Source: a virus
Lineage: Duplodnaviria; Heunggongvirae; Uroviricota; Caudoviricetes
Reading direction: 5' to 3' (one strand)
Virus record (IMG/VR): IMGVR_UViG_2778261646_000017
Coordinates: 1-16,102 of that record
DNA length: 16,102 bases
The translations under genes were made by a program, and so were the position numbers. The notes below the pieces were generated by a model. That model saw only the letters and a program-made list of their open reading frames with translations, had not been told where the DNA came from and searched no databases. Shown here in pieces: positions 1,611 through 16,102 of the stretch. Each line of letters starts with the position of its first letter. Positions within the stretch are counted from its first letter, which is position 1.

Positions 1611-1900
1611 GAAATATACAGGCGGGTAATCTTTCCAGGGGGAAGCGCACCAATTCATGAGGGGCGTTAATGTCGATATGGGGATCCCCATAACGGGGCT
1701 ACCGGATTTTTTTTCCGGTTAACTGTTAATCAGGCTGGTGGGTTTTACCTGTTCGGTAGGTGTTATGATTATCGTAATACCTTTCCCCCAGTGGGGTAAA
1801 AGCTCCAACCGTAACGATGTTCGTTGTGGTTGCCTTGATGGTCTGCGTGGTCATTATGACCATTCCCAAAAACAACATATTCGTTGTTTTTCTGTGCCCC

Positions 1901-2599: not shown

Positions 2600-2612
2600 G
2601 CTGCTGACCTCA

Positions 2613-4274
2613 TTACACCCCGCTAAATTCTTCCAGTTTCTGGCGGTGGCTGTCGCTTATATCAAAAGCAAAATCCTCATGCTCTGCCTGAAATGTACCA
2701 AACGCCATCAGTGCCGCTACGCTCGGGTCTATCTTGTTCGGTGATTTTTTCTTGTTCGGCTTGATATTGGCGTTCGCGTCACTCTGCATCACGACGTTAC
2801 TCATCGACCAGGACAACACCGGATCGCCACGATGCACAATCACCCTGCGGTTAACAAAAACTTCGAACGATTTCGCCGCCGGACTGAATCTGAGGTAGGT
2901 TTGCGGGAACGGCTCCACCTCAAAGCCTGCCCCCTGTAATTGCGTTCTCAGGTGCGTGGCGTTCCACGTATCGAAGCCCACCCGCCTGATATTAAATTTC
3001 TCGGCGTCCTGCATGATGTCATCTCTGATCCGGTCGTAATCAATGCAGTCGCCAGGCGTTGTGCGTATCCAGCCCGCTTTAGCCCACTGGCGATAGACAG
3101 CGCGATTTTTATTGGCTGGGTTCTGTAGCTGGAACTCCGGCAGATAATGACGGGAAACCAGCATGATATTTTTACCGACCGGAAAGGCATAGCATACGCT
3201 GGAAATATCGCTGGTTGATGATAAGTCCAGCCCCGCGTAACACTCCTGACCGTGTAAATCTTCCTCCGTGAACGTTCCGGTACACTCAGCCCATGCACCA
3301 TTACCCATCCACGGGGTAGTCCCCTGACACCAGATATTAAATCGCTTTGTCATCATCTCCACCCACTGCGACGGAATACCCCGCGCTTTCTGGATGGTTG
3401 AGGCCAGTTTTTCACGATCCACGGAAACATCGATGTTAGGGTTAGCCTTTATCCACATCGCCGGATCATCAACCTCGTTTTCGTCGTCCAGTTCGTAAAT
3501 CAGTACAAAAATTGAATCGTTGACCTCTTCGCCGTCCAGGATCTGGCAGCAATAATCATAGTGCTGCTTACAGGCTGAAACGACGTTACTGCCCGATGTG
3601 GTAATGGCAAATAACAGCCCTTCGGGACGTGCGCCCATCCCCATATCAAGTGCGGAATAAACCCCGTTGTCTGGGTGCAGGTGATATTCATCCACAATGG
3701 CAAGACTCGGGTTTGTCCCCTCAATGGTTGCCGCTTTTGCTGCCAGTGGCTTTAACAGGCTGTTGGTTTTCGGGTGTATCACCTTATGCGCCTGAATATT
3801 CACCCGCCTGCGTAACGGTCGGGATAAAAGGCACATCTGACGCGCATCATCAAAGACGATCCGCGCCTGGTCACGGCTCACCGCTGCGGTGTAGATATCC
3901 TGCTGACCGTTCTCCATAATCAGAAACCAGTTAGCCAGAATCGCGGCGGTCGTGGATTTCGCATTTTTGCGCGGCACTTCGATAAAGGCGCTCGTGTATT
4001 TGCGCCGTCCGGTGGCCTTAACCTTAAAGCCGAGGATGCACGCAAAGGCGAACTGCTGCCACGGCTCCAGCTCAATGGGTCTGCCACGCATCGGTCCTTT
4101 TACGTGCGGGCACACCCTGGAAAAGGCAATAAACCGCTCCACAACCTCACGATCGAACGTGTAAAGGGGGCTTTTAAGGTCCGAAAAGTACCGTTTAACA
4201 GCCTGTTTTAACCGTTTACAGGCCGGAATTTTGCCCGTTTTTACGTCTTCTGCGTACTTATTCCAGGCGGTCAA
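2613..4274 (-). CDS. terL: Terminase large subunit (Terminase_1-type ATPase/nuclease), 553 aa
   Basis: N-terminus YAEDVKTGKIPACKRLKQAVKRYFSDL typical of TerL; Walker A VPRKNAKST; Walker B-like LAIVDEYH; apparent TTG start inside the TerS 3' end with AGAGGA SD (17-nt overlap with TerS). Confidence 0.93.
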   Translation of the reverse strand: MTAWNKYAEDVKTGKIPACKRLKQAVKRYFSDLKSPLYTFDREVVERFIAFSRVCPHVKGPMRGRPIELEPWQQFAFACILGFKVKATGRRKYTSAFIEVPRKNAKSTTAAILANWFLIMENGQQDIYTAAVSRDQARIVFDDARQMCLLSRPLRRRVNIQAHKVIHPKTNSLLKPLAAKAATIEGTNPSLAIVDEYHLHPDNGVYSALDMGMGARPEGLLFAITTSGSNVVSACKQHYDYCCQILDGEEVNDSIFVLIYELDDENEVDDPAMWIKANPNIDVSVDREKLASTIQKARGIPSQWVEMMTKRFNIWCQGTTPWMGNGAWAECTGTFTEEDLHGQECYAGLDLSSTSDISSVCYAFPVGKNIMLVSRHYLPEFQLQNPANKNRAVYRQWAKAGWIRTTPGDCIDYDRIRDDIMQDAEKFNIRRVGFDTWNATHLRTQLQGAGFEVEPFPQTYLRFSPAAKSFEVFVNRRVIVHRGDPVLSWSMSNVVMQSDANANIKPNKKKSPNKIDPSVAALMAFGTFQAEHEDFAFDISDSHRQKLEEFSGV

Positions 4275-4614
4275 GCTCGTCCTCTTCTTCTGTTTCCGGT
4301 GGATTTTTACGGCGGCTTATCGGGTCAAAACCGAGCAAGGAGGCCATTTTTATCATCACTCTTTCAGCGTCGGATTTTGCGCTTAATGCGGGGTTTCTGC
4401 TCTCGCCGCCCTGACTGTTAACAATGCTGAACCCGCGCGCCGCAAGGTCTGCAACGGCTTTCCGGTAAATGGAGTAGTTGACGCAATACAGTTCCAGATT
4501 GCTCCAGTCGGCGGGGGTCAGGTCTCCCCGTTCCGCAAGCTGCCGCGATTTTTCCCGCCACTGCTTCACGGCGATATCATCCAGGTAGGCGGGGGCTTTC
4601 GGTGGTCTTGCCAT
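4258..4614 (-). CDS. terS: Terminase small subunit, P27-family-like, 118 aa
   Basis: MARPPKAPAYLDDIAVKQWREKSRQLAERGDLTPADWSNLELYCVNYSIY...NPALSAKSDAERVMIKMASLLGFDP with acidic C-terminus; directly upstream of and overlapping TerL. Confidence 0.8.
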   Translation of the reverse strand: MARPPKAPAYLDDIAVKQWREKSRQLAERGDLTPADWSNLELYCVNYSIYRKAVADLAARGFSIVNSQGGESRNPALSAKSDAERVMIKMASLLGFDPISRRKNPPETEEEDELDRLE

Positions 4615-4665
4615 GCTTATTTTTCGTCAGATTATTTTTCAAAAAATTCCCGTGCATAAAAATTT

Positions 4666-4724
4666 GGGGAGGCGTTCGGTGCCCGGCGGGGTCGGGTTTG
4701 TCCTGAAAACGCCCCCCACCCCGT
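4666..4724. other. Putative cos (cohesive-end) site: GC-rich segment with partial dyad symmetry in the 288-bp HNH-TerS intergenic gap
   Basis: ggggaggcgttcggtgcccggcggggtcgggtttgtcctgaaaacgccccccacccc; it is the only long non-coding gap in an otherwise overlap-coupled operon; HK97-like cos phages place cos between the HNH gene and terS. Confidence 0.4.
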
Positions 4725-4902
4725 CATACAGCCTCATCAGCGATTGCGGAAACATTCCATAACCTCGCGGTCACGGTCGGTTAATCGCTTCGCTGTGATG
4801 CGTTCTGCGCGTCCTGACGCTTTATCTTTATGCCCTGTTTCCTGTGTCTTCCATGCGTCACGCTGCCTTATAAGTCCACGGATAAGGCGGTTTTGTTCCC
4901 GC

Positions 4903-5343
4903 TCATTCATCAGCGTCATACATCCAGTTATTGCGGTTAGCGGCCCGTTCTTCCTCTTCATGAAATCCACCTGCGGCACGCTTGCTTTTTGTTGCCGGAT
5001 CAAGCCATTTCGTTTTCTGGTTATGACACGCCTGGCACAATGGTTGATGGTTCCATTCGGGCCAGAAGAGAACATCATCACCGCCATTAATCGGGATAAT
5101 GTGATCCACCACCACGGCGGGCGTATATATCCCCTTCTCAAGGCATCGCACGCATAACGGGTTTTTACTCAGATACATGGCGCGGTATTTGTCCCACTGT
5201 CTGGAGTACCCACGCGCGCGGCGGTGTCCTCGTCTGGCATCCTCTGCACGCCATGCCGCCCGCCTGTGCTCCTCACACTTGCCGGACTTCACGCGCCTGT
5301 TACAGCCTGGTTCTGTGCATCGTCTTAATGGTTGCCACGGCAT
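4903..5343 (-). CDS. HNH endonuclease (packaging-associated), 146 aa
   Basis: Cys pairs CTEPGC...C and CVRC...C, HNH core VVDHIIPINGGDD...NHQPLCQACHNQKT; GGGGGTG SD; sits immediately upstream of the cos-like gap and terS. Confidence 0.88.
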   Translation of the reverse strand: MPWQPLRRCTEPGCNRRVKSGKCEEHRRAAWRAEDARRGHRRARGYSRQWDKYRAMYLSKNPLCVRCLEKGIYTPAVVVDHIIPINGGDDVLFWPEWNHQPLCQACHNQKTKWLDPATKSKRAAGGFHEEEERAANRNNWMYDADE

Positions 5344-5639
5344 CAGTACACCCCCACATCACGGTAAGCCGTCCAGAGCGCGCCAATCGTCATGGGTACG
5401 CGCGTTTTTGCGTTATCCGCTACCAGCTGGCGATTCTCGTACAGGTGAGCGATAAACATCATGCAGCCAATCTTTATGGCTGGCGTGAACTCCAGCCCGT
5501 CATCAAAGCGCCTGCCTATATGTATCTGGCACGCCTCAAGCGATGCGGCAATGTATCCGCTGATTAACTGGTCTTCCTCGTCGCCATCGATGCGGCAATG
5601 GAGTTTCACTTCTTCCAGGGTGATAAGTTCTTCTGTCAT
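5343..5639 (-). CDS. gp6-like head-tail connector protein, 98 aa
   Basis: N-terminal LITLEEVKLHCRIDGDEEDQLISGYIAASLEACQ matches the gp6-like connector signature; GAGGG SD; ATGA start-stop overlap with the upstream adaptor gene. Confidence 0.75.
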   Translation of the reverse strand: MTEELITLEEVKLHCRIDGDEEDQLISGYIAASLEACQIHIGRRFDDGLEFTPAIKIGCMMFIAHLYENRQLVADNAKTRVPMTIGALWTAYRDVGVY

Positions 5640-5974
5640 TTTTCCGCGCCCTCACGACAAAGAATTTCAAGGCGTGTCCTGGCGGCATCCGGCAGCGGCT
5701 GCCCGATGATATTCAGTACACGCCCCGCCAGCGGCCCCGTATTGACCTTTATCCGGCTGGTGGCGTTGATGTCCTTCCTGTAGCGTATCCATATCCTTAC
5801 CGTTCCAGTCGCCAGTTCTGCACCCGATGAAATGGCCTCCTTGCTGCTGATCATGTTCACGCTTGCCCAGAGTGTGTGACCGTCCACCCACGTTTCGAGT
5901 ATTTCGCCGGTTATATCCCTGGTCTGTTTCAGGGTCTGAATCGTTACCCTGTCACGCAGTCGCCCTATGTTCAT
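5636..5974 (-). CDS. Head-tail adaptor / head-closure (joining) protein, about 112 aa
   Basis: GRLRDRVTIQ...TGEILETW...LWASV...RIWIRYR pattern of the phage head-tail joining family; start chosen at ATG 5974, which forms an ATGA overlap with the portal stop (the ORF track's longer start at 6016 has no SD). Confidence 0.75.
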   Translation of the reverse strand: MNIGRLRDRVTIQTLKQTRDITGEILETWVDGHTLWASVNMISSKEAISSGAELATGTVRIWIRYRKDINATSRIKVNTGPLAGRVLNIIGQPLPDAARTRLEILCREGAEK

Positions 5975-7182
5975 TCCGGTTTTTCTCCCTCGCTGATTTT
6001 TACTTCCTGTTTCCATGCCTGGCTGAACTCATCACCACCATCACGCGGGGACAGCCCTTCACGTTCGCGGGCTTCGTTCGGGCACATAACGCCGGATTTG
6101 ATGCCGCGTTCATAGGTGGCAAAGCGTTCGCCAGGTGTGGCCCGTAACAGGTCCGCGCTGTCAAACTCCACCTGATACCGGATACCAGGTACAGGTGAGG
6201 CCACCAGCAGGGCGTTTTTTATCTGCTGCTCAAAGTTCGCCAGCCACGGGCGCATCGTCATGGTGAGAAATGCGCGGCTTGCCTCGCTGAAATTGCTGTA
6301 GGTGCTGTTGCTGTATTCCTGCAAAAAAATCGGCGAGACGTTGAACATTCGGGCGATGTCTTCAATGGTGAAGCGACGGGAGGCCAGCCATTCAGCATCC
6401 TGATTACTCATGCCCAGCTGCTGATAGCTCATACCCCCTTCAAGGATGGGCGTTTTTCCGGCGTTTCTGGCCCCTTTGTAGCGTTCCAGTGCGGCTAATG
6501 CCTGTTTGCCCTTCACGCCGTCCAGCCATTCGCCTGACGTGATAACCCCTGCCGCCATCATGCCATCACGCATCACGCTCGCGCCGTGGCGTTGTTGGGC
6601 CAGCCCAAGCCCCAGCGATTCGCGGCAGATGGTTACAGGTGAGCGCCCCATAAAACCGTCATCCGTGGAGTAACGAAGGTGGAGAACCTCCCACGGTAAA
6701 TAGTTGCGGGTGTTTCCGGTGTAGGCGTCAGTGATGCAGTAGCGCCAGTTATGCTCACCTGTCTGCTCCACGTTCACCGACTGCGGCGGGTAAGGATGTA
6801 AAGCCACCGGAAAACCATCACGCCCCCACCGAATCACCGCATAAGCATTACCGTTTAACAGGCAGTGGCGGATCATCATTCGCTTAAACTGGTAGGGGGT
6901 TTGCCACGCGTTCGGGCGCTCGTTGAGGATGTGATCGACCGGATGAGAATCAAGCCACTCGCGGGCCTCCTTCCCCTTCTCATTGCGTACCAGGTACAGG
7001 TAACACGGCATGGTAGCCACCGCCTCAGAGATGACCGTCACGGCGTTCATGACGGCGGGCAGTGATTCCGCTGTCCCCGATGATACGTACTCACCCGCCC
7101 CCGTGTTCGATGTGCCGGCCAGCGCCATAAACTCATCAAGCGTCATGCTGCGCTGCTCTTTTTTTCTTCTGAAAGGCCACAT
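5971..7182 (-). CDS. Portal protein (HK97-family-like), 403 aa
   Basis: 403-aa ORF between protease and adaptor with portal-like features (…FNVSPIFLQEYSNSTYSNFSEASRAFLTMTMRPW…); GGGGGTG SD; start 1 nt after the protease stop. Confidence 0.9.
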   Translation of the reverse strand: MWPFRRKKEQRSMTLDEFMALAGTSNTGAGEYVSSGTAESLPAVMNAVTVISEAVATMPCYLYLVRNEKGKEAREWLDSHPVDHILNERPNAWQTPYQFKRMMIRHCLLNGNAYAVIRWGRDGFPVALHPYPPQSVNVEQTGEHNWRYCITDAYTGNTRNYLPWEVLHLRYSTDDGFMGRSPVTICRESLGLGLAQQRHGASVMRDGMMAAGVITSGEWLDGVKGKQALAALERYKGARNAGKTPILEGGMSYQQLGMSNQDAEWLASRRFTIEDIARMFNVSPIFLQEYSNSTYSNFSEASRAFLTMTMRPWLANFEQQIKNALLVASPVPGIRYQVEFDSADLLRATPGERFATYERGIKSGVMCPNEAREREGLSPRDGGDEFSQAWKQEVKISEGEKPE

Positions 7183-7183
7183 A

Positions 7184-7741
7184 TCACACCCCCGCTAAAT
7201 CCGCCCACCAGCGGCGATTATCCGCACGCGGCATTTTTTCGGGGTGCTGCTCGTACAGGGAGCGGCGGGCCAGCTCCACGCCAGAATCAGGGTAAGCCGG
7301 TACGGATGTAACGGTAATTTCGTACAGTTCCGCCACCAGCACGGTGCGCACGCATGGATCTGTTGTGGTATCCCATACATCCTTACGGGAGCGAAAGCCA
7401 AAGCTCATGCCGGATATATCACCTCGTTTAACCAGTTCGATAACGTCCCGCCCTGTACTGGTATCCGGTGGGGTCAGTTCAAAGCGTAACCCTGTGTCGT
7501 CCTCTTCCAGTTTCAGCGTGCCGGAACGGGTGCGCCCCAGTAACATGCTGTGGTCATGCTCATACAGGCCGCGAACGTCATTACCCGCTGCAAGCCATTC
7601 AGTAAACGCTCCCCGCTGGAATTTTTCGTAAAACTCCCCCCATAGCAGCTCTGAAAGGTTATCCCAGCGAACAACGTAGCCTGTAAGCGTGTTGCTGGCG
7701 CTGGTGGTGATTTCCGATGACCGGATTTCCATACTCTTCAT
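7184..7741 (-). CDS. Prohead maturation protease (HK97-family-like), about 185 aa
   Basis: MKSMEIRSSEITT...GYVVRWDNLSE...DHS..LLGRTRSGTL...GDISGMSFGF motifs; start placed at ATG 7741 (GGTGA SD) because the longer start at 7756 lies directly on the tail of the upstream terminator. Confidence 0.85.
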   Translation of the reverse strand: MKSMEIRSSEITTSASNTLTGYVVRWDNLSELLWGEFYEKFQRGAFTEWLAAGNDVRGLYEHDHSMLLGRTRSGTLKLEEDDTGLRFELTPPDTSTGRDVIELVKRGDISGMSFGFRSRKDVWDTTTDPCVRTVLVAELYEITVTSVPAYPDSGVELARRSLYEQHPEKMPRADNRRWWADLAGV

Positions 7742-7756
7742 AATTTTTTCACCCAT

Positions 7757-7786
7757 AAAACACTAAAGGGGCTTTTAAGCCCCTTC
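7757..7786 (-). terminator. Rho-independent terminator between the capsid and protease genes
   Basis: On the - strand: AAGGGGCT-TAAA-AGCCCCTT stem-loop followed by TTAGTGTTTT, 10 nt after the capsid stop. Confidence 0.6.
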
Positions 7787-7795
7787 TGTATGCTG

Positions 7796-8953
7796 TTAAT
7801 CGTCGTCCTGTGGCAGTTCCAGAATCTTGATCGCGTTCGAATCCACCACGCCACCGCCTAAATATTTCTGCGTGAAAATTTTGATGAAGCCCGGCTCTGT
7901 GAGGTTGTCCGGTCTGGTGCGAACACCTGTTTCGTGATCAACAATGTAGTAACCGCGTTTGAAGTCACCCAGGGCAATAACGTTATCAGGCATAAACTCC
8001 AGATATTCGACCGGAAGGCCCAGCAACGTATCAGGATCACCCGCCTGTAAACGGTCGCGCCAGATGTAATCACCGTTCGCGTTCTTCACCTTCTGAAGTT
8101 TTGCGGCCGTCGTGGAGTTAACCACCCAGACCGCGTTTTTGCGATATTTTTTATGTAATGCAAATTTCAGGTCGATCAGCGGGTCCGCAGATGTCCACGC
8201 CAGAGATTCGGAAGGTTTAATTACCTGTAACGTACCAAAATCACGCTCTTTGTCGTTCTTCTCTGCACGGGGTACGGATAAAAAGCCTTTTGCTTTTTTG
8301 TCACCGTCGCCCACAACCAGATCGCTTTCTTCGGTTTCCGTGAAGGTGTCGCCAATCTCACCCGTCAGCCATGAAAGGATGTCCACATCGGAAAAATCCA
8401 CGATTTCCTGTGTGGTGCGCGGGTACGCATAGACCGGATACAGCTTAATGCTCACCTCGTTAATCTGCGGGGTGCTGGTCTGTTCGCGTGCCTTACCCTC
8501 TTCACCGTGGTTAACGGTCGCACCGCCAGCGGAAACAAGCTGCTTAAACTCGTTGCTGCTGATTTTCTTCACGGTACAGATGCGGCGCATGGTGGATTCA
8601 TCCGCCAGCATTCGCATGATTTCGGTGTTCAGCTCGGGGATAACGGTATAACCACCATCAGCGGGAACGCCTGTACTTAATGCGCGGGTTTCACCTGTCA
8701 GGATGTAGTTTCGTAGTTCTGCGGGGTCAGTGGTCTGACTGCTTTTACCTGGCTTGCTGCGCTCTTCGTCTGCAATGGCTTCAAGGCGGGAAATGTCTTT
8801 ATCGAGGGATTCAGCTTTAGCGCGTAATTCGTCAAATTTTGCGCCCTCAGCATCGTTAAGACTGCGGTTTTCTTTTTCCGCGTTCTCCAGCATGTCGCGC
8901 ATCTGATTTTTAATGGCGGTTTTCTGCTGGCGTAATTCGATTATTCTCGGCAT
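7796..8953 (-). CDS. Major capsid protein, HK97-fold with N-terminal coiled-coil scaffold (delta) domain, 385 aa
   Basis: N-terminal 60 aa heptad-rich (LRQQKTAIKNQMRDMLENAEKENRSLNDAEGAKFDELRAKAESLDKDISRLEA); C-terminal body with capsid-like features (…GYYIVDHETGV…); followed by a terminator. Confidence 0.93.
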   Translation of the reverse strand: MPRIIELRQQKTAIKNQMRDMLENAEKENRSLNDAEGAKFDELRAKAESLDKDISRLEAIADEERSKPGKSSQTTDPAELRNYILTGETRALSTGVPADGGYTVIPELNTEIMRMLADESTMRRICTVKKISSNEFKQLVSAGGATVNHGEEGKAREQTSTPQINEVSIKLYPVYAYPRTTQEIVDFSDVDILSWLTGEIGDTFTETEESDLVVGDGDKKAKGFLSVPRAEKNDKERDFGTLQVIKPSESLAWTSADPLIDLKFALHKKYRKNAVWVVNSTTAAKLQKVKNANGDYIWRDRLQAGDPDTLLGLPVEYLEFMPDNVIALGDFKRGYYIVDHETGVRTRPDNLTEPGFIKIFTQKYLGGGVVDSNAIKILELPQDDD

Positions 8954-8960
8954 AAAAAAA

Positions 8961-8990
8961 GTCCTGGGGTTAAGTAAGGAACTCCAGGAC
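8961..8990 (-). promoter_or_regulatory. Stem-loop plus U7 tract immediately 5' of the capsid ATG; the stem contains the AGGA Shine-Dalgarno
   Basis: - strand reads GTCCTGG-(16-nt loop)-CCAGGAC-TTTTTTT-ATG; the only SD-like sequence (AGGA, 8 nt before ATG) is in the 3' arm of the 7-bp stem. Confidence 0.5.
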
Positions 8991-9167
8991 GCGGCAAAAA
9001 CTCAACCGTTTTTCATAAGGAAATCAGCAATCGCACCGATCGTTTTCCCGCCTGGTAATGAATATTGGCGAGAACATTAACAGGCGGAAAAGTGGCCCCA
9101 GCGTCCTGGCACCACGGGCGAGAATAATCATGATTCAGTTCGGGTAAAATATGCCGATCCGGTCAGC

Positions 9168-9193
9168 GAACAACGTGGAACAACCACGAACAA
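9168..9193. promoter_or_regulatory. Phased hexamer element GAACAA-cgtg-GAACAA-ccac-GAACAA, about 215 bp upstream of the capsid gene
   Basis: Three perfect GAACAA hexamers at 10-bp spacing; 9169-9193 is identical to the reverse complement of 14781-14805. Confidence 0.5.
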
Positions 9194-9210
9194 ATAATTT
9201 ACAAAACATG

Positions 9211-9235
9211 ACAAAAAGCCGGATTGCTCCGGCTG
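9211..9235 (-). terminator. Rho-independent terminator after the PerC-like gene (end of the early operon)
   Basis: - strand: AGCCGGA-GCAA-TCCGGCT followed by TTTTTGT, 6 nt after the stop. Confidence 0.6.
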
Positions 9236-9240
9236 TGTGA

Positions 9241-9513
9241 TTATCTGTCCTGGTAATTTCGCCATATTTCATCACCAGCACCATCCATACCCATTTCGGC
9301 ATAAGTGCGATCGACCGCCTTTTTCAGGTCTCCGTAATTATCCGGCGGCTCCGGTGGCCTCTGTGCCTTCCTGGAACATTCCAGCCGTCGCATCGTGATG
9401 TGATGCCGTTCCTTGTCTGTCTCCACCAGTTGCATGACTTCACCCCATCGCGCCGACGCTCTCCGGTAAAAGCCTTTCGCCTCCAGTTCTTCCGCTATGC
9501 GGTCATGTACCAT
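9241..9513 (-). CDS. PerC-like small transcriptional activator (putative), 90 aa
   Basis: MVHDRIAEELEAKGFYRRASARWGEVM... resembles my recollection of the PerC-family N-terminal signature (LE..G.WRRAA.RW); strong GAGGGGGG SD; family assignment not verified. Confidence 0.55.
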   Translation of the reverse strand: MVHDRIAEELEAKGFYRRASARWGEVMQLVETDKERHHITMRRLECSRKAQRPPEPPDNYGDLKKAVDRTYAEMGMDGAGDEIWRNYQDR

Positions 9514-9522
9514 CGCCCCCCC

Positions 9523-9933
9523 TCAGAACGGAATATCATCACCGTAAGGGTCATCGCCTCCCGCTGGTGGCTGATTACCCTGTGTGCCTGTGGTCTTGCG
9601 CCGGCTCCCACCAGGTCGCGCCGTTCTGGCACTGATTACGCTGTCTGCAATAACCTGCCAGCCCTGCCGCGTTTCGCCGTTCTGGCCTGTCCACTGGCTT
9701 ACCTGCATGTTACCCGCCACGCTCACCAGCTCGCCTTTGTGGTGTTTTGCCAGTGCGTCGGCCTGTCTGCCAAACGCCAGGACGGATAACCACATCGTCG
9801 CCTGTCCGTCATCTGCCTGATTGCACGGCAGGGGGACCGCCATGCTTGCCATAGCCATTTGTGTGCCCTTGCTGGTGGTCTTTAACTGCGGGTCAGCCAC
9901 CAGCCGCCCGTAAGCGGCTATCTGTGCTGTCAT
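9523..9933 (-). CDS. ssb: Single-stranded DNA-binding protein, divergent, with canonical acidic DDIPF C-terminal tail, 136 aa
   Basis: OB-fold-like core (YGRLVADPQLK...WLSVLAFGRQAD...KGELVSVAGNMQVSQW), Gly/Pro-rich linker and C-terminal DDPYGDDIPF; ATGA overlap with the upstream gene. Confidence 0.8.
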   Translation of the reverse strand: MTAQIAAYGRLVADPQLKTTSKGTQMAMASMAVPLPCNQADDGQATMWLSVLAFGRQADALAKHHKGELVSVAGNMQVSQWTGQNGETRQGWQVIADSVISARTARPGGSRRKTTGTQGNQPPAGGDDPYGDDIPF

Positions 9934-10187
9934 GATTCCACCTCTCCGGTTTTAACGTTGATGGTTGTTACCTGTTCCGCTTCGGCAATCTCCCGTTCCG
10001 TCAGCGTGGCAAAGTTTGCCGCCGCCGTGGTCATGAATGCGCTTATCAGGTCGGGATGTGCTTTCGCGTATCCTTCCCCCGTGTTGCGGTCGATGATTTT
10101 TATCGCCACTCTCAGCCAGTGCTCTGTAAGGTCAATGGCGCGGTTATGCTGCTTCTTCTGATTATTAAGTTTTCCTGATGTGCGCAT
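9930..10187 (-). CDS. Hypothetical protein, 85 aa
   Basis: ORF MRTSGKLNNQKKQHNRAIDLTEHW...; GAGGGGG SD; translationally coupled to ssb. No family recognised. Confidence 0.55.
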   Translation of the reverse strand: MRTSGKLNNQKKQHNRAIDLTEHWLRVAIKIIDRNTGEGYAKAHPDLISAFMTTAAANFATLTEREIAEAEQVTTINVKTGEVES

Positions 10188-10229
10188 TTTTATTTTTACC
10201 CCCTCGTTTAAAAAGTTTTGAGTTGTGCC

Positions 10230-10465
10230 TCCCCTTGTCTACCTTATCTACCTTACTGGCTCTCATGCCAGTAATGGCGCGGCTTTCAGCGGGGTAGAGT
10301 GCTTTTATCCACTATCTACCCCGTATCTACCTCCCTGTCTGATTCAGGTAAAATCAGGTAGAGAGGGTAGATAGTAGGTAGACAGTGAAAAAAGGCTGTC
10401 TACCTAAGTTAATATACTGAATTAAATGTATTTTTCTTTACTCAGGTAGACAGGGTAGACAGCCA
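10230..10465. repeat. Iteron-type replication origin: at least 11 copies of GGTAGA / TCTACC in both orientations flanking an AT-rich core
   Basis: tgtctacc, tatctacc (x3), ggtagag, aggtagagagggtagatagtaggtagacag, gtctacct, then AT-rich taagttaatatactgaattaaatgtatttttctttac, then aggtagacagggtagacag; immediately 3' of the primase gene. Confidence 0.7.
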
Positions 10466-10475
10466 TTGCAAAAAA

Positions 10476-12224
10476 TTATAAAAACGCGTCGCAATCGTCT
10501 GTTGTTATTGCGTTAGTCTGCGTTACTCCCTTAACTTTCCGCGTAATATATTCATGTCCGTAAACTTTCGCGGCTGGCTTCATAGCCTTGCCAAAGTCAT
10601 TTACGTTTAGCGGTTTGCTCCTGCCTGCGTATGCCATAAACGCCAGATAGACGCGGTAAAGGCTGTTTCTGGTCGTGTACTTCACTGAATCGCCACCGCC
10701 ACCCATCATCAGGCCGCGCGCTTCCTCCAGAAAATTCAGGAACTGGCAAAACTCAATAACCGGATCCGTCTGTTGCTTTATTGCCAGTGCTTCATCACCG
10801 TCACGCTGTTCCAGTAGTAAAGCCCGTGCCTTCTCAGGGTCGGTAAAGTTCGCCAGCAAGCGGCGGATAATGACAGGGATTTCAGCCGCGATCTTTTCCG
10901 GTAGCTCCCTGTCTTTTTCTGCCTCGCTTACGATATTGTCGAAGCGGAAAATAACCCGACGACGTGACACGCCTCCGGCCCGTTCGGTGAATATCATCGG
11001 GTTGTTATTGGTCGCCAGCACCACCGCCCTGATTACCGTAGTGAAACGCTTTTCATATTTCGGGTTGATTTCCACGGGGTCGCCGCCCGTGATTTTCTTG
11101 ATGCCCGTGCCTTCGCCTGTATATTTCGGCTGGTCTGCCAGGACGATAAGACGACTCCCGACAACCTGCGCACGCCCACCAGCATCATCAAGCGATGTCA
11201 TTTCCGCGCTTACCGTGTTTTGTTTCCCCGCTAAAAGGCTGGCGATGTGGGTGAATGTACTTTTGCCGCTCCCGCCGTCTCCGGTGGCCTCAATAAACAT
11301 CTGCCAGTCGTACCGGTTCGCCATAATCATGTACAGCGCGGCACATATACGCATCATCTTGCGCTGGTCTTTTCCGGCTGCGTGATCAAGCCATTTATGA
11401 AAGTTTGGCGCGTTATCGCGGATGTTCTCCCCAGGTGCTGGTGGCGTGTACTCAATGCCGTTGTGCGTGGTGATCCAGTTCTCCGGCGTGTGCGGGGAAA
11501 ATTCCCCCGTTTTCAGGTCAAGCGCACCATTGGCGAACGGCAACAAATCGCCGGACGGCTCGCCCATTGGTTCGGCAATAACTTTTAACGCTTCCACGGC
11601 GTTATTGATTACGCGCTTGCTGAAAGTGGCCCTGTGCTCTGAATAGATCGCCACCATTTCGCGGCTAAGTTCCATTGTGCTGACCGGACACCATACCCCG
11701 CCGCGCCATACGTGAACGATTTCACTTTCCGGATGCACACAAACGCCATCAAATCGACCAGCAAGCATCTGTGCGCGCTCACTGTCTGCCATTTGTGCCA
11801 GTTGCGTATTTTTCTGCTCCGGCATGGTAAGCCCTGCGGCAATATTTTCACGCTCAGCATTCAGATAGCGCCGCCAGTTTTCACACTTCTGGACGTGCAT
11901 TCCTTCGGGGTAAAAATTTGCGTCCTGAATATCTGCCGCCGCCAGCTTCTGACCAATCTTTTTGGTCTCCACCAAATCCAGTTCTCCGGCCTGGTACAGC
12001 CTTACGCGCTTTTTCCCATCCGGAACAATTTTCAGCGCATCAAGTTCGGCAAGCTGATTTGGCCCAAGCCACACAGGCGGCACATTATCGCCGGATGCGG
12101 GGCCGTCCTGCTCCTGCCACTGTTTTGCATGTGACCACGCATCACTACCCGCGAAAATAATTACCTCTGTGTCTTTGTGTTTTATTCCGCGTGGCTGTTT
12201 TTTTACGTTCGGTGCCAGTTTCAT
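10476..12224 (-). CDS. Replication protein: primase / SF3-type helicase (P4 alpha-like, PICI Pri-Rep-like), 582 aa
   Basis: Walker A GDGGSGKST, Walker B-like RLIVLAD, N-terminal primase-like region; ATGA-coupled to the upstream small gene; iterons directly downstream. Confidence 0.88.
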   Translation of the reverse strand: MKLAPNVKKQPRGIKHKDTEVIIFAGSDAWSHAKQWQEQDGPASGDNVPPVWLGPNQLAELDALKIVPDGKKRVRLYQAGELDLVETKKIGQKLAAADIQDANFYPEGMHVQKCENWRRYLNAERENIAAGLTMPEQKNTQLAQMADSERAQMLAGRFDGVCVHPESEIVHVWRGGVWCPVSTMELSREMVAIYSEHRATFSKRVINNAVEALKVIAEPMGEPSGDLLPFANGALDLKTGEFSPHTPENWITTHNGIEYTPPAPGENIRDNAPNFHKWLDHAAGKDQRKMMRICAALYMIMANRYDWQMFIEATGDGGSGKSTFTHIASLLAGKQNTVSAEMTSLDDAGGRAQVVGSRLIVLADQPKYTGEGTGIKKITGGDPVEINPKYEKRFTTVIRAVVLATNNNPMIFTERAGGVSRRRVIFRFDNIVSEAEKDRELPEKIAAEIPVIIRRLLANFTDPEKARALLLEQRDGDEALAIKQQTDPVIEFCQFLNFLEEARGLMMGGGGDSVKYTTRNSLYRVYLAFMAYAGRSKPLNVNDFGKAMKPAAKVYGHEYITRKVKGVTQTNAITTDDCDAFL

Positions 12225-12520
12225 TTTTTACCCCTGAATACGTTAAGCATCTTTTTTATTTCCTGAATATTGGCGCGTGCTTTCTCCCTGCTGGTTGGTT
12301 TACTGCGGGGCGCTGCCTGTACCAGAGAAAAATCACGCCGAAACTGATAAACAGGCATCACGCAATCATATTCGTAGCCTTCACGACGGTAGGTGATGCG
12401 CCGTTCTGCCACGCCTTTAATCGTTACCATGCCGCCATATTTATCGCGGTAAATATCGCCGTTCATAAATTCAGGACGAGCGGGGCCGCTGGCAGTAACG
12501 CCAGAATTTTTATTTTTCAT
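12221..12520 (-). CDS. Hypothetical protein, 99 aa
   Basis: ORF MKNKNSGVTASGPARPEFMNGDIYRDKYGGMVTIKGVAERRITYRREGYEYDCVMPVYQF...; basic C-terminus; no family assigned with confidence. Confidence 0.55.
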   Translation of the reverse strand: MKNKNSGVTASGPARPEFMNGDIYRDKYGGMVTIKGVAERRITYRREGYEYDCVMPVYQFRRDFSLVQAAPRSKPTSREKARANIQEIKKMLNVFRGKK

Positions 12521-12525
12521 GTTTT

Positions 12526-12753
12526 TTATTCTCCGGTGTGCTGCGCTTTATTATTCTCGTGAATTGCCATCACTGTATTTAATTCATTAATAACAGGCGT
12601 TAATAGCGTACGCACGGCAGAAAACATCATTGAATCAGATTCATCGCCACTTTCCGGCACATCAATTAACTTAAGTAGTAATGCGTCCATTTCCTTTGCG
12701 CGGATTAATGCGTTTTCAGAATGAACAAGAACATCAAAGGGTATTTTATGCAT
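12526..12753 (-). CDS. Hypothetical protein, 75 aa (start at the internal ATG with AGGGGGGAG SD)
   Basis: MHKIPFDVLVHSENALIRAKEMDALLLKLIDVPESGDESD...; the longer start offered by the ORF track (12855) has no SD and overlaps the upstream gene. Confidence 0.5.
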   Translation of the reverse strand: MHKIPFDVLVHSENALIRAKEMDALLLKLIDVPESGDESDSMMFSAVRTLLTPVINELNTVMAIHENNKAQHTGE

Positions 12754-12916
12754 GACTCCCCCCCTGGCGAATACGGGCGACAAAAATAAGATGTGCGTGC
12801 GGCAGCTGTGCACGTGCTTCGCGCTCAGTGGCAGCGGTAACGGTGAATATTGCAATACTGTCTGTCAGGCACTGCATAAAGCGCCAGACAAAATAAGGGC
12901 GTGCGAATACAGCCAT
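12746..12916 (-). CDS. Small protein, 56 aa, paralog of the gene at 13203-13406 (possibly the Icd-like cell-division-inhibitor family; unverified)
   Basis: MAVFARPYFVWRFMQCLTDSIAIFTVTAATEREARAQLPHAHLIFVARIRQGGSHA aligns with the C-terminal 50 aa of the upstream paralog (WRF...EARxQ.P......F.ARIRQG.SHA). The reading frame stays open upstream to 13210, so the N-terminus is uncertain. Confidence 0.5.
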   Translation of the reverse strand: MAVFARPYFVWRFMQCLTDSIAIFTVTAATEREARAQLPHAHLIFVARIRQGGSHA

Positions 12917-13202
12917 GTGAAAGGCTCCCAGATGAATTTTAAGGAGTCTCGCTACTACGCTGCTAAACATGGTGGCGAGACGTAACAGGGTTAGCAGACT
13001 GGTCATCTGGAAACCAGCGAGCACAAAGGCTCCCCCGTTACGCCCCGCCATAATGCGGGTATGGGTAGGTTTACGGACACAAAAAAACCGCTTATCGGAT
13101 GTGGGCGGCTGTCCGCCAGATGTATTCAGGCTGCTAAACCCGGTCGCCATGTGGGCGACGGGGGAAGCATACAGCCCCGTGATAATTTTTTGCAAGCGGT
13201 TT

Positions 13203-13406
13203 TTACGCATGATGTGACCCCTGACGAATACGGGCGGCGAATACCATCACGCAGCCAGCCGGGGATTGCTGGCGTGCCTCCTGTTCGCTGGTGGCCTCAA
13301 TGGTAATCACGCGCGGTTGTGCCGTGCTCAGGGCGATAAAACGCCAGATGTATTTATTCAGGTTGTGCGAGTCCCGCCCTTGCGGGTGTGTGGTATGATT
13401 TCTCAT
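13203..13406 (-). CDS. Small protein, 67 aa, paralog of the gene at 12746-12916 (possibly Icd-like; unverified)
   Basis: MRNHTTHPQGRDSHNLNKYIWRFIALSTAQPRVITIEATSEQEARQQSPAGCVMVFAARIRQGSHHA; GAGG SD 6 nt upstream of ATG at 13406; it is the C-terminal part of a 352-aa track ORF whose remainder I reject. Confidence 0.55.
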   Translation of the reverse strand: MRNHTTHPQGRDSHNLNKYIWRFIALSTAQPRVITIEATSEQEARQQSPAGCVMVFAARIRQGSHHA

Positions 13407-13501
13407 AGCTACCTCGATACTTTCGCTATCGTTGGTGGTTAGAGGCTGCGAAAGGACGGCAATCCTTTTCAGCCTCGTTTGCATTGAGTGATAGTTACTC
13501 A

Positions 13502-13582
13502 ACTGGATTCCAGTATAATCATCAAGTGGAATCCACTTCAAGCATTTTGTTTTGGTCTTTTTCGTGTATACTGGATTCCAGT
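13502..13582. promoter_or_regulatory. Three palindromic operators with core TGGAWTCCA, plus -10-like hexamers, in the divergent control region
   Basis: ACTGGA-T-TCCAGT at 13502-13514, AAGTGGA-A-TCCACTT at 13524-13538, ACTGGA-T-TCCAGT at 13570-13582; TATAAT at 13514-13519. Confidence 0.6.
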
Positions 13583-13602
13583 AATCACAAAGGAAACCGG
13601 AA

Positions 13603-13782
13603 ATGGAAAGAGACCATATCAATAACAAATCACAAAAATTACAGGCTCGCGCCCCGCATGAAGTTGTTGAGGCAATGGAGCAAGTCAAAGAAACAGGCGA
13701 GAGCACTGCGCAATTTATCGTTACAGCCATGCGCGGCGAGATCAAACGCCGCCAGCGTCGCAAAGCCAAAGAATCAGAATAA
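13603..13782 (+). CDS. Small ribbon-helix-helix-like DNA-binding protein (putative regulator), 59 aa; not in the ORF track because it is under 60 aa
   Basis: MERDHINNKSQKLQARAPHEVVEAMEQVKETGESTAQFIVTAMRGEIKRRQRRKAKESE; AGGAAA SD 8 nt upstream; predicted strand-helix-helix pattern; operators directly upstream. Confidence 0.5.
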   Translation: MERDHINNKSQKLQARAPHEVVEAMEQVKETGESTAQFIVTAMRGEIKRRQRRKAKESE

Positions 13783-13839
13783 TCACTATCAGCGCCGTGG
13801 CGTGAGGTACTCCGGCGCATTGCTTTACAGGTCAGTACT

Positions 13840-14049
13840 ATGAGCAAAAAACACCGATCAGCAGATGAGATTTTTGCAGAACAACGAAGATTGCTTTTGC
13901 AAAGTATCATTTCACGCCAGCAAGAGAAGGCGCGAGCTAAACAAATGCCACCAAATACAGAACCAGCGCCTACAAGATTTGCGCTTGATGACTTTCTCGA
14001 TAAACACCCCAGGGTAATGAAAGCAAACAAAAACCGCCCACCAGGCTGA
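13840..14049 (+). CDS. Hypothetical protein, 69 aa
   Basis: MSKKHRSADEIFAEQRRLLLQSIISRQQEKARAKQ...; weak AGGT SD; followed by a + strand terminator. No family recognised. Confidence 0.4.
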   Translation: MSKKHRSADEIFAEQRRLLLQSIISRQQEKARAKQMPPNTEPAPTRFALDDFLDKHPRVMKANKNRPPG

Positions 14050-14140
14050 TCACATTGCCCACCAGCCTGATAGCGGCTATCATCCCCGTGCTTATGTTTG
14101 AGATCACACACACAAACGGCGCAGCGGGTTATCTGTTCAG

Positions 14141-14173
14141 AAAGGCGGCTCCATTTCAGGGCCGCTTTTTTTA
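14141..14173 (+). terminator. Rho-independent terminator for the two small + strand genes
   Basis: AAAGGCGGC-(11-nt loop)-GCCGC followed by TTTTTTT on the + strand. Confidence 0.55.
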
Positions 14174-14318
14174 TTCCTGAAAAACCCCAATTTTGTTGTT
14201 TTTCAGTTTCACCAGGGCGAACGAATCCCCGCCCACGTTCTGGCGTATATTCAATCTTCATGGTTATAGCTCTGTGTTCAGATGATTGATGTGTGGCGGC
14301 TGCGTGCCGCCAGCGTGA

Positions 14319-14507
14319 TTAATGAACTGCCTTGCAGCTATCCTTCCAGGCCAGAACCTCGGATAAAGACCAGCCAACGGAACGACCGCCAAGTTTACGA
14401 CGTGATGGGAATTGTCCGGCCTTTTCCAGGCGGTAGCGACACGTACGGCTAAGGCCGGTTAGTTTTTCGCATTCTTTTTCACGTATAAACCGATCAGTGC
14501 TTAACAC
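14319..14507 (-). CDS. alpA: AlpA-family transcriptional regulator / excisionase-like HTH protein (62 aa from GTG; track ORF extends to a TTG at 14588)
   Basis: DRFIREKECEKLTGLSRTCRYRLEKAGQFPSRRKLGGRSVGWSLSEVLAWK matches the AlpA HTH signature (TGLSRST.YR....G.FP...KLG.R.V.W); GTG at 14507 has a strong AAAGGGGGG SD 5 nt upstream. Confidence 0.8.
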   Translation of the reverse strand: MLSTDRFIREKECEKLTGLSRTCRYRLEKAGQFPSRRKLGGRSVGWSLSEVLAWKDSCKAVH

Positions 14508-14780
14508 TATTGCCCCCCTTTCGTTTCTTAAAGAGTCATCAGGTGTCTTATTGTGTCGTATTGTTCCCGCTAGAGTGATGAATGGCAAATATTGAGGATG
14601 TATGATTTACAGAAAATGAAACAGTAAGAATAAAATCTTTTAAATTCATGTTAATACAAAGGCATAAAATATTGTTTCATGCCTTTTTTCTCACGCGTTA
14701 AAGCGTTATTCGCTAATGTATAAAAAAACAGTCACACAAATAAAATCAGTCACTTATAAACCTGTGTGCTTTTTCGCCTC

Positions 14781-14826
14781 TTGTTCGTGGTTGTTCCACG
14801 TTGTTTCACATTGTTCTCCGTTGTAT
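14781..14826. promoter_or_regulatory. Phased hexamer element: five TTGTTY hexamers at exact 10-bp spacing, between int and alpA
   Basis: + strand TTGTTC-gtgg-TTGTTC-cacg-TTGTTT-caca-TTGTTC-tccg-TTGTAT; the first 25 nt are the exact reverse complement of 9169-9193. Confidence 0.55.
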
Positions 14827-14872
14827 CTGTGTGCTTATCCAGTATGCGCATACTGAAAAAACACGAAAAAAA

Positions 14873-16102
14873 TTATTTTCTTCTGGCTGCTGGTAGTGCG
14901 GTTACGTTTTCATGTGTTCCCGCCAGTATCCCTAACCGCTCCATCCACATATCCAGCGCATTGCGTTTAGCATCCAGATAACGGGAATGATTATAAACTC
15001 GCTGCATTCCTGGCATCTGGTGGCCTGTAAGCTGCTCCACGACGTGAGGATCCACGCCTAAATCGCTCAGCATCGTTGTAAAGGTGCGCCGGATGTCATG
15101 TAGTGACCAGTGAGGGTGATTTAGCCTCCTGTGCGCTAATCTGCCGTACTGCGACACGCTTGTTTCCTGTTTCACTTCCCCCAGCAATAAGCCCGTGTGC
15201 CTGTTCTGCTCCACCAGCTGCGTGACGAACGGCAGTATTGCTTCCGGTATGGGCCGGAATATTGCCACCTTCGTTTTGCTGTGTTCTTTCGGCACGGTCC
15301 AGAGCATTTCGGTAAAATCCCACTCGCTGATCTCCGATAACCTCAGTTCTACCGTCCGGCATCCGAACACAATCAGGAGGCGGATTAACGCGATGTAGTA
15401 GGGGGAGAATATTTTTTTGTCCAGTGCCTGCAATAATTCGCCCAGTTCTTTGGTGCTTAAGACACGCTCGCTTATATCCAGTTTTTTCCCAACGTCCGCC
15501 ACACTCATATCATCAAGAACGTTGCTGATTGCATAGCGCCGCCTCCGGCAGAACTTAAGCGCCTGTTTGCACGTCTGTAGCAAGAATCCGGCAGTAACAG
15601 GCGTTCGCTTTGCCACCTGGTCAAAACAGGCCAGCCAGTGCCGTAGCTCGCATTTATCCAGCGGCATAGCACCAATGTGCTGTATTACGTGATTATTAAG
15701 GCGCTTTTTCAGGGCGGCATAATCCACGCGGTTTTCCTTTGCGTACGACTCAAGCCAGTAGGTGAGCGCATCGCCAACCGTTACCGGCTTTAACGCTTCC
15801 TGTACGGTGTAATTAAGCTCATGACGTGGATTTTTCCCCTCTGCCAGCCATGCGCGACACTGGGCGGCTTTTTCCCTGGCTGATTTCAGGCTCAGATCAG
15901 GATAATTTCCCAGCTTAATGCGTTCCGGTGGTGCCCCCCTTCCCGTTCCGGCCCTGTAAGTGAAATACCAGGTTAAAAGGCCACTGGTTGAATGCCTGAC
16001 GCTCAGGTTTCCACCGTCATTAAGAAAGGCTGTTTTTTGGGCGGGTGTGCCGTTGATTTTCCTCAGCTGTGTATCGCTCAGTTTGTTAAGTGCTCTGCTC
16101 AT
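14873..16102 (-). CDS. int: Tyrosine recombinase / integrase, P4-type (409 aa; start codon at the window edge, could extend further)
   Basis: N-terminal arm-binding-like domain (LSDTQLRKI...GLLTWYFTYRAG), catalytic region with HDIRRTF...LGHQ-like...RVYNHSRY (R-H-R-Y residues). Confidence 0.92.
   Translation of the reverse strand: MSRALNKLSDTQLRKINGTPAQKTAFLNDGGNLSVRHSTSGLLTWYFTYRAGTGRGAPPERIKLGNYPDLSLKSAREKAAQCRAWLAEGKNPRHELNYTVQEALKPVTVGDALTYWLESYAKENRVDYAALKKRLNNHVIQHIGAMPLDKCELRHWLACFDQVAKRTPVTAGFLLQTCKQALKFCRRRRYAISNVLDDMSVADVGKKLDISERVLSTKELGELLQALDKKIFSPYYIALIRLLIVFGCRTVELRLSEISEWDFTEMLWTVPKEHSKTKVAIFRPIPEAILPFVTQLVEQNRHTGLLLGEVKQETSVSQYGRLAHRRLNHPHWSLHDIRRTFTTMLSDLGVDPHVVEQLTGHQMPGMQRVYNHSRYLDAKRNALDMWMERLGILAGTHENVTALPAARRK

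Follow-up and report, generated by a model that had tools for sequence, protein, structure and literature searches.

AlpA, the master regulator of Gram-negative phage-inducible chromosomal islands (PICIs), shares its Pfam family with P4 Vis, which regulates the late promoters of P4. Excisionases bind tandem direct repeats one DNA turn apart, head to tail (PMC7498355), and some of them, namely 186 Apl, P2 Cox, P4 Vis and ICEMlSym RdfS, also use additional arrays of such repeats to control promoters (PMC7498355, PMC11963761). A comparable arrangement was found in a 16,102-nucleotide stretch of DNA (IMG/VR record IMGVR_UViG_2778261646_000017, positions 1 to 16,102; hereafter the window), which is 100% identical to Escherichia coli O7:K1 CE10 over its 16.1 kb. 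The element it contains is a capsid-forming PICI (cf-PICI) of the EcCIEDL933 family. The present analysis concerns the control region of its capsid and packaging genes, a 287-base spacer between perC and the capsid gene (interval 9240-8954, - strand). Neither this control region nor any AlpA binding site was described in the cf-PICI literature examined.

By analogy, the closest counterparts in function would be the dual-purpose excisionases of P2-like phages and P4, together with RdfS, combined with an attenuator-type leader. A small winged-helix protein, att direct repeats one turn apart and further promoter arrays are common to the CE10 island and the Apl, Cox, Vis and RdfS systems (PMC7498355, PMC11963761). 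In those systems a single protein sets both excision and transcription, a role predicted here for AlpA. The CE10 island differs from them by its arrays in both att arms and by extra arrays upstream of the regulator's own gene and of a satellite-encoded capsid/packaging operon. Apl and Cox mainly repress, whereas the -55 to -100 geometry of the capsid array suggests activation.

Other described systems resemble the region in part. The Ogr/Delta late promoters of P2 and P4 also combine a weak sigma-70 promoter with an activator site near -55, ahead of late morphogenetic genes of the satellite or helper. They rely on a TGT-N12-ACA dyad instead of a direct-repeat array, and this promoter type was rejected, with no such dyad in 9214-9150 and no Ogr/Delta zinc-finger protein among the open reading frames (ORFs) of the window. 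As in the lambdoid PR'/6S leader/tR'/Q system and in HK022 put, a promoter is followed by a leader (~160-190 nt) with two adjacent hairpins at its start and a hairpin with a U-tract at its end, before the late genes. Here, however, the U-tract is lineage-specific, the hairpin overlaps the Shine-Dalgarno (SD) sequence of the first gene, and no Q protein, Q-binding element or sequence similarity was found. Attenuator and riboswitch leaders share a terminator or SD-sequestering hairpin whose 5' strand can pair upstream, with covariation supporting both folds. They differ in that the partners in this leader are ~110 nt apart with a long hairpin in between, and that neither a sensor nor an Rfam family was found.

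The interval 9240-8954 is probably (about 60%) the control region of the cf-PICI capsid/packaging operon, working by insulation, activation, a weak promoter and a leader switch, and the spacer is most likely the point where the satellite decides the timing of capsid building. In the proposed mechanism, the terminator at 9234-9211 would stop transcription arriving from the replication/perC unit. AlpA would bind the five TTGT hexamers (9214-9168) head to tail, and the protein bound at about -55 to -100 would activate the weak promoter P2, with a start near G9115. The ~160-nt transcript would begin with stem-loop 1 (SL1), followed by SL2 and SL3, and its default fold would hold the capsid gene off at the RNA level. 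In the alternative fold, 9109-9101 would pair with 8992-8984, freeing the SD and abolishing the terminator hairpin. The arrays of the att arms would serve excision and the one upstream of alpA autoactivation, so that one protein would couple excision, replication and capsid production. An earlier note on this DNA had read the spacer as a late-operon control region. Its terminator, GAACAA element and SD-containing hairpin were all recovered on the - strand at the coordinates given. The reading was broadly correct though incomplete, and has to be extended by the sharing of the array with the att sites and alpA, the terminator shape of SL3 and the two-state leader. Coordinates of the features are gathered in Table 1.

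Table 1. Features of the control region and related elements, numbered along the window.
Feature	Position	Strand	Basis or context
Predicted core promoter P2: -35 TTTACC (9148-9143), 16-nt spacer, -10 TATTCT (9126-9121)	9121-9148	-	
Alternative promoter P1: unit 5 TTGTTC (9173-9168) as -35, 16-nt spacer, TATTTT (9151-9146) as -10	9146-9173	-	
Intrinsic terminator (predicted)	9211-9234	-	consensus scan and fold
Five-unit TTGT-type hexamer array	9168-9214	-	motif scan; homologous arrays elsewhere in the island
Motif TTTTGTAAATTAT	9194-9206	-	includes array unit 2 (TTGTAA)
SL1: GUGGU-G-CCAG-GACG-CUGG-G-GCCAC	9092-9115	-	predicted 5' end of the transcript
SL2: long stem UUUUCCGCCUG.UAAUG / CAUUA.CAGGCGGGAAAA	9043-9091	-	abuts SL1 directly
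SL3: GTCCTGG (8990-8984) / CCAGGAC (8967-8961)	8961-8990	-	fold and conservation
U7 tract	8954-8960	-	between SL3 and the capsid AUG
CCAGGACGC, SL1 loop and 3' strand	9101-9109	-	long-range partner 8992-8984
GCGUCCUGG, SL3 5' strand and two upstream bases	8984-8992	-	long-range partner 9109-9101
alpA, 62 aa from a GTG start	14319-14507	-	proposed array binder
Array A, 5-6 GAACAA-type units	14771-14826	-	int-alpA spacer; inverted relative to the capsid array
Array C (TTGTGT, TTGTTC, TTGTTT)	1585-1610	-	attR arm, beside phoQ
Tandem GGTGTAGTTAAT x2, 12-bp period	1544-1567	-	17 bp from array C; candidate integrase arm-type sites
phoQ	1-1461	+	only gene of the window off the - strand

The five-unit array was made of TTGTCA, TTGTAA and three TTGTTC units, in that order, with spacings of 10, 11, 10 and 10 bp. 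The element of three GAACAA hexamers in 10-bp phase that had been pointed out at 9168-9193 was present with 0 mismatches, and forms part of this longer array. With up to 3 mismatches allowed, the element matched 6 times in the whole window, against 0.03 matches expected (200 shuffles), and TTGT-core arrays were essentially absent from shuffled sequences (mean 0 to 0.02 per locus). Where both island ends were available, TTGT arrays were confined to four places, namely the attL arm (~65-90 bp upstream of int), the int-alpA spacer, the position before the capsid gene and the attR arm. This distribution was observed in six islands with four different integration sites, the pre-capsid array being found in cf-PICIs only. 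Array A contained a 26-mer identical to that of the capsid array except for 1 base, in inverted orientation. Arrays were limited to islands with E. coli-type int/alpA, and islands with distant int/alpA displayed none at the att sites or at the capsid gene. As both att arms and the region upstream of alpA carry this type of operator, the array is not promoter-specific and can be assigned to the recombination/regulation module of the island.

The att arrays were located 17 bp from the GGTGTAGTTAAT tandem at both ends of five islands representing four integration sites. This tandem was also found between the attL array and int in relatives (e.g., at about 1128-1151 of L014, outside the window). 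It resembles the TGTGTATTGC x2 repeat, which was found at both ends only of L057 and L060 (integrase 45% identical), as well as the arm consensus TGKTGGTATC of the ICEMlSym integrase IntS (PMC11963761). On account of these resemblances, the integrase was taken as the binder of the 12-bp repeat, and another protein as that of the TTGT arrays. At least three direct repeats about one helical turn (10-11 bp) apart, with copies at att beside arm-type repeats, are what is expected of an excisionase operator.

The array is most likely an operator for a dual-purpose excisionase/activator, AlpA. This protein matched Pfam PF05930 (1.5e-16) and PHROG 2790, annotated as 'excisionase and transcriptional regulator' (2.5e-17). 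Its structural model (predicted local distance difference test score, pLDDT, of 86) displayed an excisionase-type winged-helix fold, as expected of a cognate recombination directionality factor of the island. The best structural matches were the GIsul2 excisionase 8c3t (template modelling score, TM, 0.79) and the RdfS excisionase 8dgl (TM 0.68). EcCICFT073 encodes an AlpA with 93.5% identity to this one; there the protein activates the promoter region of its own gene, and overexpressing it induces excision and replication (PMC6092414). Capsids of EcCIEDL933 are produced from an alpA-overexpressing strain. The literature searched contained no AlpA footprint or gel shift on the repeats.

Other proteins were considered as binders of the array. 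An assignment to the P4-family integrase, with the capsid copy acting as an Int-dependent regulatory site or being an ancestral att-arm relic left behind when a PICI acquired the packaging module, would agree with its Arm-DNA-bind_3 domain and with the occurrence of arrays in both att arms, as expected of arm sites. It would also agree with the observation that islands whose AlpA is no more than 56-66% identical retain GAACAA-like att and capsid arrays together with a highly conserved Int N-terminus (100 residues). This assignment is unlikely: arm-type sites are confined to the att arms, while two of the four arrays are 1.3 kb and ~7 kb away from the island ends/att core, where arm sites are not expected, and the separate GGTGTAGTTAAT repeat of both arms fits the P4-family arm consensus and the L057/L060 repeats better than GAACAA does. 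Moreover, 3-6 units at exact one-turn spacing are an excisionase pattern, and the relic variant was rejected, as the capsid array has neither a GGTGTAG partner nor an att core beside it. It is very doubtful that the activator recognising the array or the conserved motif is the PerC-like protein or the small PHROG 1957 protein of most relatives. PerC-family proteins carry a transcriptional-activator annotation, perC ends only 7 nt from the terminator and also lies 5' of morphogenesis genes in classical PICIs, and the PHROG 1957 gene is found directly 5' of the motif in many genera. However, PerC was rejected as the array binder by the E200139 island, which has the array and lacks perC, the array is missing at the late operon of classical PICIs with perC, and the CE10 window has the array without the PHROG 1957 gene. 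Nor is it obvious what a late-gene activator would do at the att arms or upstream of alpA, where the same arrays occur.

The surroundings of alpA displayed further elements. Degenerate phased hexamers (GAACAA tacg ACACAA taag ACACCT) were observed at 14537-14562 on the - strand, 30-55 nt 5' of the alpA GTG, overlapping a promoter-like site flagged by the scan (TTGCCA-17-AACAAT). A palindrome of 16 bp without mismatch, CAGTATGCGCATACTG, was found between array A and the int stop codon (~14838-14853). At ~14655-14695, the + strand carries T6 after a conserved hairpin, AAAGGCAT..ATGCCTTT, which makes it terminator-like in the direction antisense to the alpA leader.

The terminator appears to mark the 5' boundary of the packaging module, independently of the upstream gene. 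It begins 7 nt past the perC stop codon (9243-9241) with a stem of 7 bp, 5 of them G-C (AGCCGGA, 9234-9228; TCCGGCT, 9223-9217), closed by a GCAA loop and followed by a TTTTTGT tail down to 9211. Besides being flagged by the consensus scan, it reached a folding energy of -14.4 kcal/mol (z = -3.8 against shuffles). The GC-rich stem, short loop, adjoining U-tract and location past a stop codon make it a canonical intrinsic terminator in sequence, as had been claimed for the stretch between the PerC-like stop and the capsid start. In almost every one of the 19 E. coli-type contexts listed, the array was immediately preceded by this same hairpin, whichever gene was upstream (perC, PHROG 1957 or another). 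In L063 (capsid 69% identical), a different terminator (CCCTGGTTTAACCAGGG followed by T7) occupied the same spot, and array-less lineages had another terminator-like hairpin right against the promoter. L056 and L002 had no terminator at this spot. As the terminator, own or substitute, is kept in place despite varying upstream genes, insulation from upstream transcription appears to be a recurring feature, in agreement with the insulating role first proposed for it.

Copies of the terminator hairpin were not restricted to cf-PICIs, and it was likewise found 3' of perC in the classical PICIs CFT073 and SCU-106. Two copies surrounded the small PHROG 1957 gene in Shigella and O157 islands, and an extra gene in L001 and L014. 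Homology between islands often stopped exactly at the terminator.

The motif TTTTGTAAATTAT, which overlaps the array, was the first cross-genus conserved sequence at the left edge of the packaging module. It was found 5' of the capsid gene in Shigella, Rosenbergiella, Citrobacter, Erwinia, Gilliamella and IMG/VR relatives. In L057 (9763-9791, - strand of that locus), its reverse complement provides the TTTACA -35 of a divergent promoter-like site (10/12) aimed at a reverse-oriented accessory gene. The motif may thus also serve leftward transcription where cargo genes have been inserted.

The predicted core promoter P2 was weak and conserved in position. It scored 8/12, under the scan threshold, and its predicted transcription start, G9115, is the first base of SL1. 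Equivalents in L057 and L015 (TTTACA-16-TATCTT and TTTACA-16-TATGTT) were flagged by the scan at 9/12. Across 57 distinct upstream contexts drawn from genomes, viral contigs and metagenomes, a -10-like hexamer was found exactly 5 nt 5' of SL1 (TATNNT in 55/57, TACCTT in 2/57), and TTTAC[ACT] was present 16 nt upstream of it in 30/57. The CFT073 island, a classical PICI, has the 12-mer AATCATGATTAT in common with P2, and a perfect TATAAT as its hexamer. Relative to G9115, the centres of the array units are at about -55, -65, -75, -86 and -96, all on the same side of the helix. Activators bound upstream of a promoter typically have this geometry, which suggests activation. A fixed -10, a weak -35 and an upstream array are the features of an activator-dependent sigma-70 promoter, and P2 would act as such. 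The dedicated, probably activator-dependent promoter postulated in the earlier note thus fits a position-conserved weak promoter just 3' of the array in a spacer where no strong sigma-70 promoter was detected. The hexamers and spacing of the alternative promoter P1 were also kept in L063 with another spacer sequence, a conservation confounded by the overlap of its TATTTT with the P2 -35.

The predicted leader (~160 nt) contained three hairpins in every lineage. The GACG loop of SL1 was near-invariant, while three of the four pairs of its inner stem changed on both sides between lineages and none was ever broken; the outer stem covaried as well (GUGGC/GCCAC vs GUGAC/GUCAC). The SL2 position held a long hairpin in five lineages, with differing stem sequences. 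SL3 reached -14.1 kcal/mol (z = -3.6) and was found in L063 as GUCCUG..CAGGAC. E. coli variants mostly keep its pairing (CC to UU gives G-U and a new A-U), and other lineages displayed a hairpin at the same place, with a purine-rich stretch likewise in the 3' arm.

The 3' arm of SL3 carries AGGA (8965-8962), 8 nt from the capsid AUG (8953), which is likely the SD and would be buried by the SL3 stem. With a plausible SD at functional spacing paired inside a stable local stem, SL3 corresponds in form to an SD-sequestering hairpin. The SD-containing hairpin previously placed at 8961-8990 was retained, the SD-like AGGA of its 3' arm being close to the start codon. The GGAG of the 5' arm was rejected as an SD, being 28 nt from the AUG and GGTG in L063. 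A U7-U8 tract comes directly after SL3 in L063 and in every E. coli-type relative, and SL3 with U7 resembles a second intrinsic terminator, overlooked by the earlier note. The U7 tract could also be an S1-binding, U-rich translation enhancer.

Leader peptides were considered and rejected. A 35-codon ORF (9131-9024) starts upstream of the predicted transcription start and is not conserved, and a 10-codon ORF, seen in part of the other lineages, overlaps the -10 there, while further lineages have no start codon for it. Rfam searches of the whole window at the gathering score retrieved only a C4 RNA located elsewhere, and searches of the spacer with E up to 10 gave two chance-level matches. As blastn of the spacer against 50,697 phage records returned no match, it does not seem to be borrowed from a known phage. 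A pattern scan of viral contigs (hairpin, T7 and ATG) retrieved essentially the same E. coli islands only. In the classical PICIs L013 (CFT073; 9439-9524) and L076 (17560-17640), a TATAAT is followed by a 14-bp hairpin and T-run right before the first morphogenesis gene. Since classical PICIs carry one too, a terminator-shaped hairpin ahead of the late genes is common to both PICI types.

SL1 and SL3 could be joined by an alternative long-range helix. CCAGGACGC and GCGUCCUGG form 9 perfect base pairs, a length reached in 2 of 2000 shuffles. Other lineages keep 8-9 bp with different sequences (AGACGUGA with UCACGUCU, GACGGGAG with UUCCCGUC), corresponding to 8 perfect Watson-Crick pairs, or 9 if one G-U is allowed. 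The covariation table was built from 84 leaders, reduced to 15 distinct combinations. A whole-leader MAFFT alignment resolved only the SL1 inner stem and four long-range pairs, and neither SL2 nor SL3, while MAFFT of concatenated SL1 and SL3 segments misaligned two lineages. Pairs were for this reason counted with an anchor-based script. The core GACG:CGUC was paired in 15/15 combinations, and the adjacent pair (C-G, U-A or G-C) was intact in 15/15. In register, 97/105 cells were paired, against 33-64/105 when the partner was slid. The covarying partner base on the SL3 side is unpaired within SL3, which therefore cannot account for the covariation.

Two mutually exclusive helices, with covariation in support, are what is found in attenuator-type leaders. 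The complementarity and its covariation suggest a two-state leader, in which the default fold would bury the SD (and form the terminator in E. coli) and the alternative fold would release both. As few independent lineages are available, we keep the chance of such a switch somewhat short of even.

Two further explanations of the spacer were weighed, one bearing on the role of SL3 and the other on the promoter itself. SL3 with U7 could be primarily a transcription terminator, with the operon depending on processive antitermination (by a leader like the HK022 put RNA, or by an island or helper factor in the lambdoid PR'-tR' manner) and not on translational control. The GC-rich stem of SL3 against a perfect U7-U8 (-14.1 kcal/mol), its distance of ~160 nt to the predicted start, another strong terminator-like hairpin 3' of the capsid gene (7786-7765) and the hairpin with T-run ahead of the first late gene of classical PICIs would all be in line with it. 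In size as well, put RNAs (~70 nt, two stem-loops just 3' of the promoter; PMC9378689) are comparable with SL1 and SL2 (~73 nt). Most other lineages, though, keep SL3 without a U-tract, no Q-like protein was found among the ORFs of the window, and the spacer gave neither an Rfam match nor blastn similarity to any phage, which makes antitermination an unlikely requirement. Antitermination of the Pseudomonas AlpA type was itself judged unlikely, the island AlpA being a 62-aa DNA-binding domain only, without the N-terminal ring domain of the Pseudomonas antiterminator.

The other explanation is that the packaging genes have no dedicated promoter and are transcribed by partial read-through from the alpA/replication operon, with the array, motif and hairpins being scars or hot spots of recombination at the edge of a variable region. 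Several relatives have an oppositely oriented gene immediately upstream, which rules out simple read-through, and neither the -10-like hexamer fixed 5 nt from SL1 in 57 contexts nor the compensatory changes in the leader are expected of scars. Such an origin is thus very improbable, even though the spacer falls within a region of cf-PICIs known to vary, the terminator is the exact point at which inter-island homology ends, L001 and L014 carry an extra gene between two terminator copies, and no promoter passed the scan.

The reading of the spacer as a control region with an AlpA operator and a leader switch also has to accommodate several observations that weigh against it. With regard to AlpA, the array upstream of alpA has the opposite orientation to the capsid array, and islands with 56-66% identical AlpA keep GAACAA-like att and capsid arrays but have a degenerate one next to alpA. 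Int and AlpA covary in all islands examined, so that the comparison cannot separate the two as binders, and in EcCICFT073 the int promoter (Pint) is unchanged by AlpA despite the array just upstream of int (PMC6092414). With regard to the promoter, the scan detected no strong sigma-70 promoter in the spacer, and the literature search retrieved no transcript, footprint or reporter result for the region. With regard to the leader, the alternative fold is less stable than the default one (forcing it costs 1.3-8.3 kcal/mol relative to the minimum-energy fold), and the covariation of the helix rests on about three or four independent lineages. The U-tract is confined to E. coli and L063, and is missing from Rosenbergiella, Citrobacter and Erwinia-type leaders in which SL3 is kept. 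No sensor was identified among conserved leader peptides, ligand pockets or known protein sites, and the leader belongs to no Rfam family.

More tentatively, the capsid operon of Enterobacterales cf-PICIs may be gated by a previously undescribed ~160-nt leader with two exclusive folds, to which an AlpA array borrowed from the att sites would be added in E. coli. SL1, with its near-invariant GACG loop, would then be the anti-sequestor/anti-terminator partner of the SD-burying hairpin. Under such a gate, capsids would require two keys, the excisionase/activator at the promoter and a signal flipping the leader.

The timing of capsid production by cf-PICIs is not described in the literature examined, and the main outputs of this analysis are an AlpA operator model common to att, alpA and the capsid operon, and a candidate conserved leader RNA switch. 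If the array is the AlpA operator, one small protein would couple excision, its own synthesis and capsid production, and the array would provide the first concrete binding-site model for AlpA. If the leader is a switch, it would represent a new class of cis-regulatory RNA in many gut- and plant-associated Enterobacterales, and a second checkpoint, perhaps responsive to the helper phage or to cell state. The two predictions also offer handles to engineer satellites as delivery vehicles.

cf-PICIs make their own capsids, and only the tails come from helper phages. The gene content of the CE10 island corresponded to this type of element, with int, alpA, a primase/replication module and its own set of genes from capsid to TerL, no tail or lysis genes, and a size of ~15 kb (Pfam matches for each gene listed below). 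On the - strand, a P4-type integrase with an arm-binding domain is followed by alpA, a 352-aa protein and a C4 antisense RNA, then by DUF4222, a D5-type primase, SSB and a PerC-family protein (9513-9241). The packaging part consists of an HK97-type capsid (8953-7796), prohead protease, portal, head completion/connector proteins, HNH, TerS and TerL. The island adjoins phoQ and is inserted between roxA and phoQ, as in the prototype EcCIEDL933, and its organisation equals that of the EDL933-type island of strain PA20 and the published cf-PICI description. EcCIEDL933 and the CE10 island share gene order, the roxA/phoQ site, identical AlpA, 98.8% identical Int and a near-identical capsid control region. 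The CE10 island differs by lacking the small PHROG 1957 gene and the second terminator copy after perC.

The conserved PHROG 1957 gene (74-87 aa) lies directly 5' of the capsid control region in most cf-PICIs across genera (e.g., L001 2476-2700, L014 8446-8670, L002 2506-2767 and L005 2518-2768). In E. coli and Shigella it is bracketed by two terminator copies, and its absence from CE10 is the outcome expected from recombination between them. Downstream of the control region, a strong terminator-like hairpin (GAAGGGGCTTAAAAGCCCCTTT, 9 bp; 7765-7786, - strand) separates the capsid and protease genes, and probably sets the ratio of capsid protein to downstream products.

Other parts of the window and its relatives displayed minor features. 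The C4 antisense RNA (Rfam RF01695, 72.7 bits, E 7.6e-13) is located inside the island at 12968-13055 on the - strand, beside an ORF (12746-13210) with PHROG matches to Icd-like/repressor proteins, corresponding to a P1/P7-type c4-icd module in a PICI. L057 and L060, from IMG/VR, are island relatives located inside a prophage terminase gene, with two or three alpA paralogues. Finally, a unit of 29-48 nt (AATATCANCNRGTTACCGCGCC) was found 4-5 times at 1896-2334, with a distinct GC-rich palindrome after each copy, between the last island gene and the attR arm, a region said to carry accessory/defence functions.

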